From Leptolyngbyaceae cyanobacterium (GTDB lineage Bacteria; Cyanobacteriota; Cyanobacteriia; Phormidesmidales; Phormidesmidaceae): a stretch of DNA of 64,000 bases. Where the stretch lies: NCBI GenBank assembly GCA_965263355.1, contig CBDHHL010000032.1, positions 3,456,001-3,520,000 on the forward strand. The letters run 5' to 3'. Shown piece by piece: positions 13,241 to 19,542 of the stretch. Under the pieces are notes generated by a model. That model saw only the letters and a list, made by a program, of their open reading frames with translations. It ran no database searches and was not told the DNA's origin. Both the position numbers and the translations under genes were made by a program. How positions within the stretch are numbered: position 1 is the stretch's first letter; each line of letters begins with the position of its first letter.

Positions 13241-16200
13241 ATGGCAATGACCAAGGATGAGCTGCTGGCGTTGATTGACCAGGCGGCGGCGGAAGGGTGG
13301 ACGGAGTTGGACCTGGCGGGGCAGGGGCTGAGCGAACTGCCAGAGGAGATTGGCAAGCTGACGCAGCTGGAGCGGTTGATATTGGGAAAGGGGAAAAAGG
13401 ATAAGGATGGGAAGCAGCAATGGAGATTCGAATTCATTGATGGTAAACATCGCTCAGTTGCTCTGACAATCGGTAATAAGCTGACAGCTTTGCCAGCTTG
13501 CTTGAAACAGCTATCTGAGCTGCGTCACTTAGATATTAGCGGTAATCCAATTAGTCTAATACCTGAGAATATTAGTGAGTTATCTCAACTAAAAACATTT
13601 ATTGCTCTTAAGAGTAAATTAACCCAAATTCCGGATTCCATCGCCCAGCTAGCCTCTCTACAACAGCTCTACCTTAACCAAATTACAGAGATTCCGGATT
13701 CCATCGCCCAGCTAGCCTCTCTACAACAGCTCGACCTCAGCTCTAACCAAATTACAGAGATTCCGGATTCCATCGCCCAGCTAGCCTCTCTACAACAGCT
13801 CGACCTCAGCTCTAACCAAATTACAGAGATTCCGGATTCCATCGCCCAGCTAGCCTCTCTACAACAGCTCGACCTCAGCTCTAACCAAATTACAGAGATT
13901 CCGGATTCCATCGCCCAGCTAGCCTCTCTACAACAGCTCGACCTCAGCTCTAACCAAATTACAGAGATTCCGGATTCCATCGCCCAGCTAGCCTCTCTAC
14001 AACAGCTCGACCTCAGCGATAACCAAATTACAGAGATTCCGGATTCCATCGCCCAGCTAGCCTCTCTACAACAGCTCGACCTCAGCTCTAACCAAATTAC
14101 AGAGATTCCGGATTCCATCGCCCAGCTAGCCTCTCTACAACAGCTCGACCTCCGCTCTAACCAAATTACAGAGATTCCGGATTCCATCGCCCAGCTAGCC
14201 TCTCTACAACAGCTCTACCTCAGCTCTAACCAAATTACAGAGATTCCGGATTCCATCGCCCAGCTAGCCTCTCTACAACAGCTCGACCTCAGCTCTAACC
14301 AAATTACAGAGATTCCGGATTCCATCGCCCAGCTAGCCTCTCTACAACAGCTCGACCTCAGCGATAACCAAATTACAGAGATTCCGGATTCCATCGCCCA
14401 GCTAGCCTCTCTACAACAGCTCTACCTCAGCTCTAACCAAATTACAGAGATTCCGGATTCCATCGCCCAGCTAGCCTCTCTACAACAGCTCTACCTCCGC
14501 TATAACCAAATTACAGAGATTCCGGATTCCATCGCCCAGCTAGCCTCTCTACAACAGCTCTACCTCAGCTCTAACCAAATTACAGAGATTCCGGATTCCA
14601 TCGCCCAGCTAGCCTCTCTACAACAGCTCGACCTCAGCGATAACCAAATTACAGAGATTCCGGATTCCATCGCCCAGCTAGCCTCTCTACAACAGCTCTA
14701 CCTCAGCTCTAACCAAATTACAGAGATTCCGGATTCCATCGCCCAGCTAGCCTCTCTACAACAGCTCGACCTCAGCTCTAACCAAATTACAGAGATTCCG
14801 GATTCCATCGCCCAGCTAGCCTCTCTACAACAGCTCTACCTCCGCTATAACCAAATTACAGAGATTCCGGATTCCATCGCCCAGCTAGCCTCTCTACAAC
14901 AGCTCTACCTCCGCTATAACCAAATTACAGAGATTCCGGATTCCATCGCCCAGCTAGCCTCTCTACAACAGCTCTACCTCAGCTATAACCAAATTACAGA
15001 GATTCCGGATTCCATCGCCCAGCTAGCCTCTCTACAACAGCTCTACCTCCGCTATAACCAAATTACAGAGATTCCGGATTCCATCGCCCAGCTAGCCTCT
15101 CTACAACAGCTCGACCTCCGCTCTAACCAAATTACAGAGATTCCGGATTCCATCGCCCAGCTAGCCTCTCTACAACAGCTCGACCTCCGCTCTAACCAAA
15201 TTACAGAGATTCCGGATTCCATCGCCCAGCTAGCCTCTCTACAACAGCTCGACCTCCGCTATAACCAAATTACAGAGATTCCAGGCAGTTTAGAAAGCTT
15301 AGAACAACTACAAAGACTCGATGTTCGTCATAATCCACTACCCATTGCACCAGAAATCCTGGGTCCTCCAGAAGACTATGAAGAACCAGGGCCAGTTTCC
15401 GGCATCTTCAACTACTGCCGCCAGCTCCGCAGCGGCGAAGTCCGCCCCCTTAATGAAGCCAAACTTATCCTGGTTGGCCAGGGCAGCGTCGGCAAAACAT
15501 CCCTGATCAACCGACTGATCGAAGATTCCTTTAACCCCAACGAAGCACAAACCGACGGTCTCAATGTGTCCAACTGGGCCATCAACGTCAACACCAAAGA
15601 CGTGCGCCTCAACGTCTGGGACTTTGGCGGTCAAGAAATCTATCATGCCACTCACCAATTCTTTCTGACTAAGCGCAGCCTTTATCTACTCGTCTGCAAC
15701 TGCCGCACCAGCGAAGAAGAAAACCGCCTCGACTACTGGCTCAAACTGATCAAAAGTTTCGGTGACGATGCCCCCGTCATTATCGTTGGCAACAAGCGTG
15801 ACGAACAACCCCTCGATATCAACCGAAAAGCTTTACGGAGCAAATACCCCAACATTAAAGACATTATTGAAACTTCCTGTCAAACTGGCGATGGCATCAA
15901 AGAACTGAACCAAGCAATTAATAAAGAGGTAGGACAGCTTAAAGAAGTGTACGATCTGCTTCCTCTTTCTTGGTTTGAAGTCAAAGAACACCTAGAAAAT
16001 TTAGACAAAGACTTTATCAAATACTCCAAATACGAAAGCATTTGTGACCAGCAAGGCATCGAAGAAGAAAAAGATCAAACCCAGTAATAATTGGGCTGCT
16101 TCACAACCTGGGTCTGGTACTCAACTACAGCCGACCATCCTCTTTTAAAATACACTAACGTCCTAAATCCAGACTGGGTTACCACAGGCATTTATACGTT

Positions 16201-17026
16201 GCTGAGTGATGAGAACTTAAAGACAAAATCTAAAGGTCAACTAACCCTTGATGACCTTAGTCGGGTACTAAATCCCCAACGCTATCCAGTACATCGCCAT
16301 CATTACCTCATCGAACTGATGAAAGAATTCAAGCTATGCTTTGAACTGCCAGACTGCAAGCCTGCTCGATATCTTATTCCTGGCATCCTACCCAAAGAAG
16401 AACCAGAAGAGACTGACTTAGAAGGAGAAACTCTAAATTTCCAATATCATTACAGCGTATTGCCAGATAGTGTTATCTCGCGTTTCATCGTATACATGCA
16501 CGAAAAAATCCATAAGGAAACCTACTGGCGCAGCGGAGTAATGCTTGCTCACACTGAAGGCAATGAGGTTTACAATATTGCCCGCATCAAAGCCGACCCT
16601 GCCGACAATAAAATCTTTATCGCTGTTAGTGGCAAGGAATCTACCCGACGTACCTTTCTCGGAATGATCCGTGATGTATTCAACAAAAAAGTACACATCA
16701 ATTTGACTAAACCTACTGAGTGGGTTCCTGTCCCTGATCATCCCGATCATCCACCACTCGATTACCAAGAACTGCTTGGTCTAGAAGACATGAACGAACA
16801 AAACGTAGTCATCGGCAAACTCAAACTCAAACTAAACCTACGCCAACTCCTCGACGGCTACGAACCCATCGAAATCCGCAGACTCAAACAAAAAGGAGTA
16901 GACATAGATAGTACTGGCGACGGAATCAATATTTCCGTCACCGATGCCCGCACCAAAATCATCCAACAAGGCGATGGCGACAATGTTGCCGGAGACTTAA
17001 TAGAAGGGAATAAAACAATCACATAA
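13241..17026 (+). CDS. LRR-Roc-COR (Roco) protein, interrupted by two compensating frameshifts at about 16085-16129 (ORF track splits it into 13241-16087 and 16091-17026)
   Basis: LRRs, Roc GTPase motifs GQGSVGKT, WDFGGQE and NKRD; COR motifs LLHNLGLVLNY (shifted frame), VLNPDWVTTGIY and YWRSGV. Confidence 0.9.
13676..15262 (+). repeat. 23 x 69-bp coding tandem repeat (23-aa LRR units), with partial units at 13628-13675 and 15263-15282
   Basis: Unit AACCAAATTACAGAGATTCCGGATTCCATCGCCCAGCTAGCCTCTCTACAACAGCTC[G/T]ACCTC[A/C]GC[TC/GA/TA]T. Confidence 0.97.
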
Positions 17027-17069
17027 CCATGAAATTTAACGCTATCCTGAGAGTAATTCATGACTCCCA

Positions 17070-17639
17070 ATGACCTCATTAGTCCGCCTACAGCTACTCG
17101 ACGTCGTCGCCCTCAAAGCCGACCTACCAGACCATAATCTCACCGCAGGCCAGGTCGGCACCCTGGTCGAAGAATTAGCCCCTAACGTCTACGAAGTCGA
17201 ATTCAGCGACGACCATGGCCAAACCTACGCCATGCTACCCCTCCACACCGACCAAGTCCTTAAACTAAGCTACACACCAGGAGAACCAACCATGGGCAAC
17301 ACTATCAATCAATACGGCTCTGGCGACAACATCGCAGGCGACAAAGTCATGGGCGACAAAATCAATACCCAAATCAACAACAGCCAGGACTTAGCCCAGG
17401 CCGCTAAAGCCATCAAAGACCTCCTCACCCAACTCGAAACCGACTACGACCCCACCACCCCCGTCGGTCAAACCATGATGACCGCCAAACTCATCGAATC
17501 CGTCGATAACAACCCCACCCTCAAAGCCCGAGTCGTCAACGCCCTCAAAGAAGGCGGTAGCACGGCCCTTGAAGAAGCCATTGATCATCCGATAGTAAAA
17601 CCTGTGGTCGCTGCTCTCAAAGGCTTTATGGATGCATGA
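17070..17639 (+). CDS. DUF4926-like domain + Gly/Asn/Asp-rich motif + C-terminal helical domain
   Basis: LLDVVAL..DLP...GQVGTLVE...YEVEFSD..GQTYA N-terminus, then INQYGSGDNIAGDKVMGDK and a helical DLAQAAKAIKDLL...NPTLKARVVNALKEGG domain. Confidence 0.8.
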   Translation: MTSLVRLQLLDVVALKADLPDHNLTAGQVGTLVEELAPNVYEVEFSDDHGQTYAMLPLHTDQVLKLSYTPGEPTMGNTINQYGSGDNIAGDKVMGDKINTQINNSQDLAQAAKAIKDLLTQLETDYDPTTPVGQTMMTAKLIESVDNNPTLKARVVNALKEGGSTALEEAIDHPIVKPVVAALKGFMDA

Positions 17640-18275: not shown

Positions 18276-18411
18276 GTTTCAGATTAAATTACCCCTATGT
18301 ATCAGCAACCCTCTCCAACCGTAGTCACCCTGGAAGTCGGCACTCACTGGCACAGTGCCTACGCCCTTAGTCATCAGTTCAGCAAGCGCCATTCACCAAA
18401 CACCTAAAGCC

Positions 18412-19542
18412 ATGTCATCTCTGCCATCCCTATTTGTCTCCCACGGAGCACCCGATTTACCAATTCGGACAGGGTCAACCCAAACATTTCTGCAACAGTT
18501 GGCCAGCACAATGCCCACACCACAGGCCATCTTGATTATCTCGGCCCACTGGCTTACAGCTGTCCCTACCGTCAGCACCCACCCAAACCCTAAAACGGTC
18601 TATGACTTTGGCGGTTTTTCACCTGAGTTATATCAGCTTAGGTATCCAGCTGCTGGTGCTCCAGATGTCGCCAACCGGGTGGCAGAGTTACTTACCGCAG
18701 CCAACCTACCAGCCCAGACCAATGCTACTCGGGGATTTGATCACGGTATTTGGACTCCCTTGATCTTGATCTATCCAGATGCTGAAATACCGGTTGTCCA
18801 AATGTCACTCCAACCGACTCAAGGACCGGAATATCATCTAAAGCTCGGTCAACTATTAGCCCCATTGCGGTCAGAAGGCATTGCTGACACCAACTATACG
18901 GGTCGGGTCACCGTTCCTGTTCTTTGGGACAAAAAGACCCAGACCATTGTTAATAATGAGTCTCGTCAGATCATTCAAATGTTGAACTCAGAGTTTAATG
19001 AATTTGCAACATTTCCAGCACGAGACTTCTACCCTGAGAATTTACGCCCTGAAATTGATCGGGTGATGGATAGTATTTATCAGCCCATTAACAATGGTGT
19101 TTATCGGAGTGGGTTTGCTGCTTCCCAAACGGCTTATAACGCAGCCGTCACAGAACTATTCGCGGCCCTAGACCATTGGGAAGATATTTTAGCAAAACAG
19201 CGCTACCTATGCGGCGATCAGCTGACGTTAGCAGATTGGTGTTTATTTACTACCCTTTTTCGCTTTGATTTGGCTTATTACGGTTTGTTTAAGTGCAATC
19301 TCAAACGACTCGTTGACTATCCTAATCTGTGGGCCTATTGCCGCGAACTGTACCAACTAGAGAGAAACTGGTGCAACATCGACCATGTTAAACAGCTTTA
19401 CTATGCTGGTCTACCTGAACTTAATCCTGGTGGCATTATCCCGGTGGGGCCAAAAATTGATTTTGAGCAGGCCCATGGTCGCGAGAGTGATAAGTTCTCT
19501 GAAATCGGCAATTTACTGGCCGATTGTTTGGCCACTCAGTAG
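18412..19542 (+). pseudogene. In-frame chimera: N-terminal part of LigB/DODA-type extradiol dioxygenase fused to C-terminal part of glutathionyl-hydroquinone reductase (YqjG/ECM4-like GST)
   Basis: SHGAP, ISAHW and RGFDHG motifs end at LAPLRSEGI, then abruptly ADTNYTGRVTVPVLWD...NNGVYRSGF. Both halves are incomplete. Confidence 0.8.

Follow-up and report, generated by a model that had tools for sequence, protein, structure and literature searches.

We analysed a 64,000-nucleotide stretch of a Leptolyngbyaceae cyanobacterium genome (contig CBDHHL010000032.1, positions 3,456,001 to 3,520,000 of the forward strand; hereafter the window, numbered from its first letter) and found that a Roco protein, carrying leucine-rich repeats (LRRs), a Roc GTPase domain and COR domains, ends in a 19-residue motif that recurs at the head of a small helical protein encoded just downstream. 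The receptor-side copy, IIQQGDGDNVAGDLIEGNK, lies at 16958-17014 on the plus strand, at the Roco C-terminus and three residues ahead of the stop, and the effector-side copy, INQYGSGDNIAGDKVMGDK, lies at 17304-17360 on the plus strand and consists of five-residue G-D-[N/K]-[I/V]-x repeats. The motif is paired in this way in related loci, is conserved under selection, recurs on unrelated proteins and, in genes that fuse the Roco to the helical domain, is preceded by a start signal. We consider it likely that the motif couples the Roco and the small helical protein in some way.

A sequence-only reading of the window had aligned the Roco tail with the downstream peptide without gaps at 11 of 19 identical residues, and both the coordinates and the alignment were borne out. 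At the DNA level the two copies share 36 of 57 nucleotides, and the codons differ at 4 of the 11 identical residues. When the downstream 189-aa protein was shuffled and compared with the 311-aa Roco piece, none of 300 shuffles reached 11 identities in any 19-residue window (maximum 9); none of 100,000 shuffles of the 19-mer itself reached 10, and a six-frame pattern scan of the window returned no motif site beyond these two. The second copy does sit within the next protein, as had been described, but it also forms the N-terminus of a 115-aa form that stands alone in relatives. The G-[D/N] spacing, given earlier as about 6 residues, is instead a period of 5 (positions 7, 12 and 17 in the Roco copy), and pentamer number varies, 98 of 107 scored proteins having 3 to 5 copies. 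The suggested likeness to amyloid signalling motifs holds in part: the 42 motifs counted abound in G (20.3%), N (8.8%), I (8.3%) and Q (7.8%), with 6.5% V, and are poor in L (1.1%) and P (0.1%), like BASS motifs, but K and D are high and the period is 5. Column counts over 21 receptor and 21 effector motifs show that the G-phi-Q-phi-G signature at the centre of RHIM, PP and BASS3 motifs is absent.

Related loci were fetched from three scans (19 of 19, 12 of 12 and the best 80 of at least 156), giving 97 loci, from which 3 duplicates and 2 loci without a match to the helical domain were dropped to leave 93 with the domain, window included; all named relatives are cyanobacteria. The C-terminal position of the Roco protein is variable among them: the helical domain is fused to the Roco end in 35 loci, a Roco gene lies upstream of a separately encoded domain in 32 split loci, as in the window, and no Roco was seen in 26. 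Among the split Rocos, 29 of 32 end in the motif (21 of the window subtype and 8 of another, assigned by eye, in which GDK pentamers are more numerous), and all 21 tails of the window subtype run into a stop codon 2-11 residues past the motif. In a COR tree of 66 sequences (FastTree), fused and split forms are mixed in both main clades, and neither motif subtypes nor inserts track the tree, which suggests that 3' modules have been exchanged between loci. Subtypes pair A with A and B with B in 21 and 8 split loci, respectively; we take this as weak evidence because most B loci share a BrnT cassette and one locus, L113, mixes subtypes.

The Roco copy of the motif is under purifying selection, which agrees with the earlier suggestion that the similarity is kept at the protein level: in pooled pairwise counts over seven close loci, the ratio of nonsynonymous to synonymous change (pN/pS) is 0.20 for the motif, compared with 0.32 for the preceding linker and 0.15 for the COR end. 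Six motif columns were used for picking Roco tails, and columns outside that choice are conserved too (Q3 in 21 of 21, G5 in 19 of 21, G17 in 20 of 21 and K19 in 16 of 21). Across the 21 split loci, mean identity is 85% for the effector motif, 60% for the helical domain and 58% for the Roco motif, compared with 14% for the 19 residues before the Roco motif. Positions 14 and 16 differ systematically between the copies, with K (21 of 21) and M (19 of 21) on the effector side against mixed residues and E/Q on the Roco side. The statement that this is not a recent duplication stands, although a common origin by duplication is likely, the two copies probably being old duplicates of one cassette.

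Within the window, the effector-side copy would be reached by two routes. A DUF4926 domain (17070-17258, plus strand; Pfam E 2e-23) continues in frame into the motif and the helical domain, and a predicted internal start (17279-17294, plus strand), consisting of a Shine-Dalgarno-like AGGAG at 17279-17283 and an in-frame ATG at 17292, would yield the 115-aa protein. This start lies four codons ahead of the motif and is conserved in relatives, in which stand-alone forms of 112-116 aa also occur, some of them without a Roco neighbour. Fused Roco genes show similar signals. In 31 of the 35, the 10 codons ahead of the motif include an in-frame ATG or GTG, compared with 195 of 1033 background windows (10 of the 35 are closely related Nostoc loci), and such a start is accompanied by a Shine-Dalgarno-like word in 27 of 35 compared with 7 of 1033. 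The split Roco tails have no such start (0 of 21). Of 94 long proteins in the wider family, 67 have a Met 26-50 residues before the domain, whereas a control window gave 13 of the 94. From these sequence patterns, it is likely that fused and split layouts both yield a motif-tailed large sensor together with a free, motif-led small protein; alternatively, the conserved internal start could be a remnant of gene fusion. That 3 of the 4 fused Rocos lacking the internal start have a second copy downstream was given no weight, as all four belong to one clade.

The motif is also portable. Searching with a motif-only profile gave matches in 8 of the 301 genomes sampled from the phylum and in 20 of the 301 sampled from the order. 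Of 20 copies found at gene ends in the fetched loci, 16 have a second copy 115-891 nt downstream, and the other four comprise two that are truncated downstream copies themselves, one near a contig end and one with a degenerate partner. As a leading element, the motif precedes not only the window's helical domain but also a second four-helix domain, which contains a hydrophobic helix and was found in 447 proteins, and a CHAT domain (L121). As a terminal element, it is found on upstream proteins other than Roco, in three of which (L081, L084 and L125) a transmembrane stretch directly precedes it; L113 and L144 are further cases, with upstream proteins of no assigned type. The L081, L084 and L125 proteins have an N-terminal hydrophobic segment too and are candidate membrane receptors. 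In L079, L089 and L097, DUF6232 membrane proteins have a different, GDIINQSGSF-like motif at their end, and that motif also heads the same helical domain; this DUF6232 pairing, seen in L093 as well, constitutes a second reverse-polarity pair. Tandem motifs within one protein occur in L079, L106 and L129.

A search with the window's helical domain itself gave 1,503 clusters at E<=0.001. In the 150 best of these, the domain sits at the C-terminus with few exceptions and mostly behind a G/N/Q/I-rich stretch, with several sequence families of such stretches; the 30 residues before it (94 proteins of the wider family) contain 14% G, 13% N, 8% Q and 2% L. In 92 scanned proteins, it was found behind Roco, pentapeptide-repeat, TIR, AbiTii, DpnII-type, nSTAND1-caspase and YpsA-SLOG domains. 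We also observed, in proteins P0218-P0353, at least 5 further G/N/Q/I-rich motif families before the same helical domain, many of them behind pentapeptide-repeat proteins and often with a Met 25-50 residues upstream.

This domain (17385-17639, plus strand) is a candidate effector of 84 aa with an amphipathic last helix. Its AlphaFold2 model, taken on the small protein, has four helices with confidence scores (pLDDT) of about 75-87, with residues 1-27 below 50; the motif thus lies outside the confident globular fold (pLDDT below 50 for residues 6-27). A motif inside such a fold is what the sequence-only reading had named as an observation that would speak against its proposal, and the model does not show it. 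Neither the 115-aa form nor the 84-residue region matched a Pfam, NCBIfam or PADLOC family (weak PADLOC and NCBIfam hits under the cut-off being set aside), Foldseek returned nothing for the domain at E<=0.001, and the best fold match was to a TetR-type chain (Z 5.5, root-mean-square deviation (rmsd) 3.5, 86 residues aligned), with no specific relative. The second helical domain forms a four-helix bundle of generic type (Z 11.6 for the best match, rmsd 3.9, 95 residues aligned), likewise without a specific relative and likewise with the motif outside the confident fold of its model. Profile comparison failed to align the two domains (probability 2%). A Bell/HeLo-like layout was not found in the window's domain, as the domain follows the motif and its first helix is amphipathic (mean hydrophobicity 0.00). 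An Atlas feature search pointed to TCAD2 for the window domain (0.88) and DUF4404 for the second domain (0.89), as leads only; the window domain has no Pfam match, and neither family was among the 25 shown for 58 members. A complex prediction with three 115-aa copies and the Roco tail scored 0.00, which gives no answer and was used neither way. In L106, L109-L113, L122-L124, L128 and L136, the second domain has a lysine-flanked hydrophobic helix and is led by one or two motifs, and it is often fused to DUF4926. The second domain is a better candidate for a pore than the window's.

The mechanism we favour, with only slightly more belief than doubt, is that the Roco tail would template its partner's motif into a beta-solenoid or amyloid-like stack, activating the helical domain as part of a response that we predict to be defence or cell death; an amyloid state, an activity of the effector and a part in defence are all proposed by analogy with BASS pairs and with the Bab/Agp system. 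In such a scheme, near-identical LRRs with three variable positions would sense a foreign or damage signal, and the Roc-COR nucleotide switch would expose or cluster the Roco tail. The tail would then serve as template for the motif at the head of the 115-aa protein, and every added chain would lengthen the stack by roughly one turn (20 residues, four pentamers). Output might follow when the helical domains crowd together or open, with the membrane as the most likely site. In loci that also have a toxin gene, the polymer could draw in the fusion of antitoxin and motif, giving a side output.

Several observations weigh against templating of this kind. Within the main subtype, there is no co-variation between a Roco motif and its own partner (11.14 vs. 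11.11 identities, p 0.48), 3 of the 32 split Rocos lack the motif, and the loci are related and have shuffled 3' modules, so that locus counts are not independent events. The motif's content of K (8.6%) and D (14.4%) is high, while BASS motifs are described as K-depleted. A long hydrophobic helix is missing from the window domain, where mean hydrophobicity peaks at 0.34; this leaves pore formation unsupported for it, and the window's own Roco copy is interrupted as assembled. Finally, the C. tepidum Roco, the only solved bacterial one, becomes a monomer on GTP binding, according to the available part of its description (PMC11052575), which is a misfit with simple oligomer-driven nucleation and keeps a cap-and-release alternative open.

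That alternative, which we hold to be unlikely, survives best among the competing explanations. It takes the Roco tail as a short beta-strand that docks on or caps the partner's repeats in a small complex with no self-propagating amyloid, and in one variant the Roco possibly keeps the helical protein inactive until the GTPase switch releases it. The pairing and selection evidence fits this equally well, the systematic differences at positions 14 and 16 are such as a chain-ending cap might show, and GTP-driven monomerisation of a bacterial Roco would fit release. However, the variable pentamer number, the tandem motifs (L106, L129) and the interchangeable motif families look more like amyloid-signalling motifs than like a fixed binding site, and the existence of stand-alone 112-116 aa genes, some without a Roco neighbour, also speaks against docking.

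Further alternatives arise from the genes inserted between the Roco and the small gene, which comprise DUF6883 with DUF4926, BrnT with a BrnA-like gene, PBECR2-like with DUF2283, XisH with XisI, ParE, HNH genes, or no insert at all. The first gene of a cassette is DUF6883, BrnT, ParE or PBECR2-like, and the second cassette gene is fused in frame to the motif in 27 of 30 cases for DUF4926, 9 of 9 for the BrnA-like gene and 6 of 6 for DUF2283, but in 0 of 3 for XisI. These features would accord with toxin release as the main output, in which motif polymerisation traps the fused antitoxin or immunity protein and frees an RNase toxin, the helical domain serving as mere scaffold, an arrangement that we judge quite unlikely. 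DUF6883 and DUF4926 have been proposed as a toxin-immunity pair, with DUF6883 a BECR-Tox3 RNase (available part of bioRxiv 10.64898/2026.08.28.747851). Yet DUF6883 is present in only 13 of the 27 loci with fused DUF4926 (some contigs being short) and was not found in the window, so that toxin release is not a general output, and both the insert-free loci (L005, L033, L038, L073 and L077, each with both motifs) and the 35 fused Rocos retain the motif. The BrnA-like domain, moreover, has no Pfam match and was named by position, and the antitoxin role of this and the DUF2283 domain is one that we presume from position.

It is very unlikely, in our estimate, that the Roco copy is simply left over from the splitting of a Roco-motif-helical gene, through cassette insertion or tail duplication, and that the motif is a mere linker or folding element. 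Fused forms are common (35 of 93), L041, L043, L064 and L080 are intermediates in which a fused, diverged copy is accompanied by a second, free one, identity is lower among Roco copies than among effector copies (58% vs. 85%), and own-pair co-variation is lacking, all of which favour such a history. A mere leftover is at odds, however, with purifying selection on the Roco copy, with a stop just past an intact motif in 21 of 21 main-subtype tails, all of which have also lost the internal start, and with the same motif on unrelated membrane proteins and ahead of unrelated domains; the history probably explains the origin of the Roco copy and not its retention. Least probable is that the motif acts at the DNA level, as a site of recombination or insertion, or that it is an RTX-like repeat that binds calcium: several different cassettes do occupy the same position and the peptide is rich in G and D, but synonymous sites are heavily changed (pS 0.60 among the seven close loci and 0.85 among 21), and the motif has a period of 5 and no Pfam RTX match, RTX repeats being nonapeptides.

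Extending the templating mechanism beyond this locus, we tentatively envisage a wide cyanobacterial network of reversed polarity. In it, short stacking motifs at the ends of Roco GTPases, membrane receptors and pentapeptide-repeat proteins would template the same motifs heading so far undescribed helical death domains made from nested starts, often also drawing a motif-tagged antitoxin into the fibre and so releasing an RNase toxin.

The Roco gene of the window is read in two pieces, both on the plus strand. The first (13241-16087, 948 aa) contains about 23 LRR units, Roc and the start of COR-A (Pfam LRR_8, Roc at E 5e-33, COR-A), and the second (16091-17026, 311 aa) contains COR-A and COR-B (Pfam), a variable linker and the terminal motif, so that N-terminal LRRs, Roc GTPase, COR-A and COR-B are all present by Pfam, in a gene that is intact in relatives and in public contigs. 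The break (16085-16130, plus strand), which the sequence-only reading had not mentioned and which was located by three-frame translation and alignment to five close relatives, consists of a 2-base insertion near 16086 and a 1-base insertion near 16128, with two stops between. Neither insertion is present in the near-identical contigs of 4 of 4 public runs (at most 3 samples from 2 studies), so the break is either an error of assembly or a strain lesion; the Roco family is intact outside the window copy. In run X1, the contigs flanking the break match the window without differences, while the contig that spans it differs at 19 letters. More broadly, the stretch 15847-16129 has about 15-19 substitutions and both insertions relative to near-identical public contigs, with matching flanks; a chimera made in assembly, or else recombination with a paralogue, may account for this. 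DNA identity among the 23 core LRR units is 93%, with variation almost wholly at three positions, and near-identical repeats varying at few positions have been linked to diversifying sensors (Dyrka et al., available part of bioRxiv 10.1101/2020.01.06.895854).

Other features of the locus and its relatives were also noted. Between the Roco stop and DUF4926, positions 17029-17056 read M-K...I-L-R, resembling both ends of relatives' DUF6883 genes; this may, weakly, be the scar of a lost toxin gene, its ATG not being conserved in other close loci. Promoter and terminator scans gave results at chance level. Further downstream, 18355-19542 is a single open reading frame with, by eye, a dioxygenase-like N-terminal half and a glutathionyl-hydroquinone-reductase-like C-terminal half, possibly a deletion fusion or an assembly join. 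Among relatives, L049 (2968-6321) has an N6 DNA methylase domain in place of the LRRs before Roc-COR and ends in the motif and helical domain, and L131 (1231-2430, minus strand) encodes COR, then EAD7, then the motif and helical domain.

Bacterial Rocos serve as structural models for LRRK2, and the literature covered contained no tested output for them; the present locus supplies a Roco partner, a contact peptide and testable mutations. Should the wide network exist, it would provide a first signalling output for bacterial LRRK2-like proteins, of a potential extent indicated by the 1,503 clusters of the helical domain alone and the many motif families ahead of it. The wiring would be new as a switch as well, with a single gene as the source of a motif-tailed sensor and, through an internal start, of a free protein led by the motif, and with motif-fused antitoxins. 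The literature searched held no description of this pairing, though subscription papers and closed supplements may hold one.

Among known systems, pentapeptide-repeat beta-helix proteins (PF00805) share the five-residue period, four pentamers making one turn of their helix, and the helical domain is often fused to such proteins; unlike them, the motif has only 3-5 repeats, a different consensus and no Pfam match. Animal RHIM proteins and fungal HET-S/NWD2 similarly use a homotypic motif to relay a signal from sensor to effector, and ZBP1 and TRIF carry RHIMs behind sensing or adaptor domains, so that a motif behind a sensor has precedent outside bacteria; in contrast to these, the present motif has no G-phi-Q-phi-G core, and no sequence relationship to them was found.

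Closer parallels exist within bacteria, and for these we draw on the available parts of the sources cited. The BASS1-10 Bell/NLR pairs likewise have a G/N/Q/I-rich motif of about 20-25 residues common to adjacent collinear gene products, a small helical partner, occurrence in filamentous cyanobacteria, CHAT association, pseudo-repeats and a sensor with highly similar repeats (bioRxiv 10.1101/2020.01.06.895854). The differences are that here the motif lies at the end of the sensor and at the head of the small protein, that the sensor is a Roc-COR GTPase or a membrane protein (L081, L084, L125) and not NB-ARC/NACHT, that the helical domain lacks a Bell layout and an N-terminal hydrophobic helix, and that fused forms with an internal start and toxin-antitoxin-like cassettes between the genes occur. 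The opposite polarity to NLR-type pairs had been recognised from the letters of the window and agrees with published BASS pairs, in which motifs lie at receptor N-termini and effector C-termini (PMC12261475; PMC13506858); because amyloid-motif screens targeted those termini, a class of reverse polarity would be missed. The GDK pentamer was not seen by eye, without profile scoring, in the BASS sets of one validation fold (ten families) in the PMC8086366 data file; in that file, the earliest occurrences of GDKV and AGDK are in the PDB negative sets and not in the BASS sets. Although the locus may be BASS-like in its working, we do not class it as a BASS pair, because both polarity and receptor type differ.

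The Bab/Agp system (BASS11) of E. coli ECOR25 also combines a non-NLR sensor with a small helical protein through a shared motif (bioRxiv 10.1101/2024.11.07.622273); its motif is N-terminal on the sensor (TPR-GreA/B-PIN) and C-terminal on the effector, unlike here, and amyloid and antiphage activity were shown there, which makes it an experimentally tested model for the way in which the window locus might function. As for the Roco sensor, the accessible text of Kaur et al. 2020 (PMC7159879) makes no mention of amyloid, TCAD or DUF4404. In the available part of Kaur et al. 2021 (PMC8195603), prokaryotic LRR-AP-GTPase(Roc)-COR proteins are proposed to act against invaders with variable C-terminal effectors, and at least 24 C-terminal domains are described for them; an 818-aa Roco of Leptolyngbya sp. 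Heron Island J, with the length of that in L003, is listed without a C-terminal domain and with neighbours unnamed, and the supplement lists cyanobacterial LRR+AP-GTPase+COR+DUF4404 and +TCAD2 proteins, the two labels that the Atlas feature search likewise gave as leads for the helical domains. A shared motif, a split form and an internal start are not described in that part of the paper, but the conflict proteins it catalogues have the same sensor architecture as the Roco studied here and the same variable C-terminal position.
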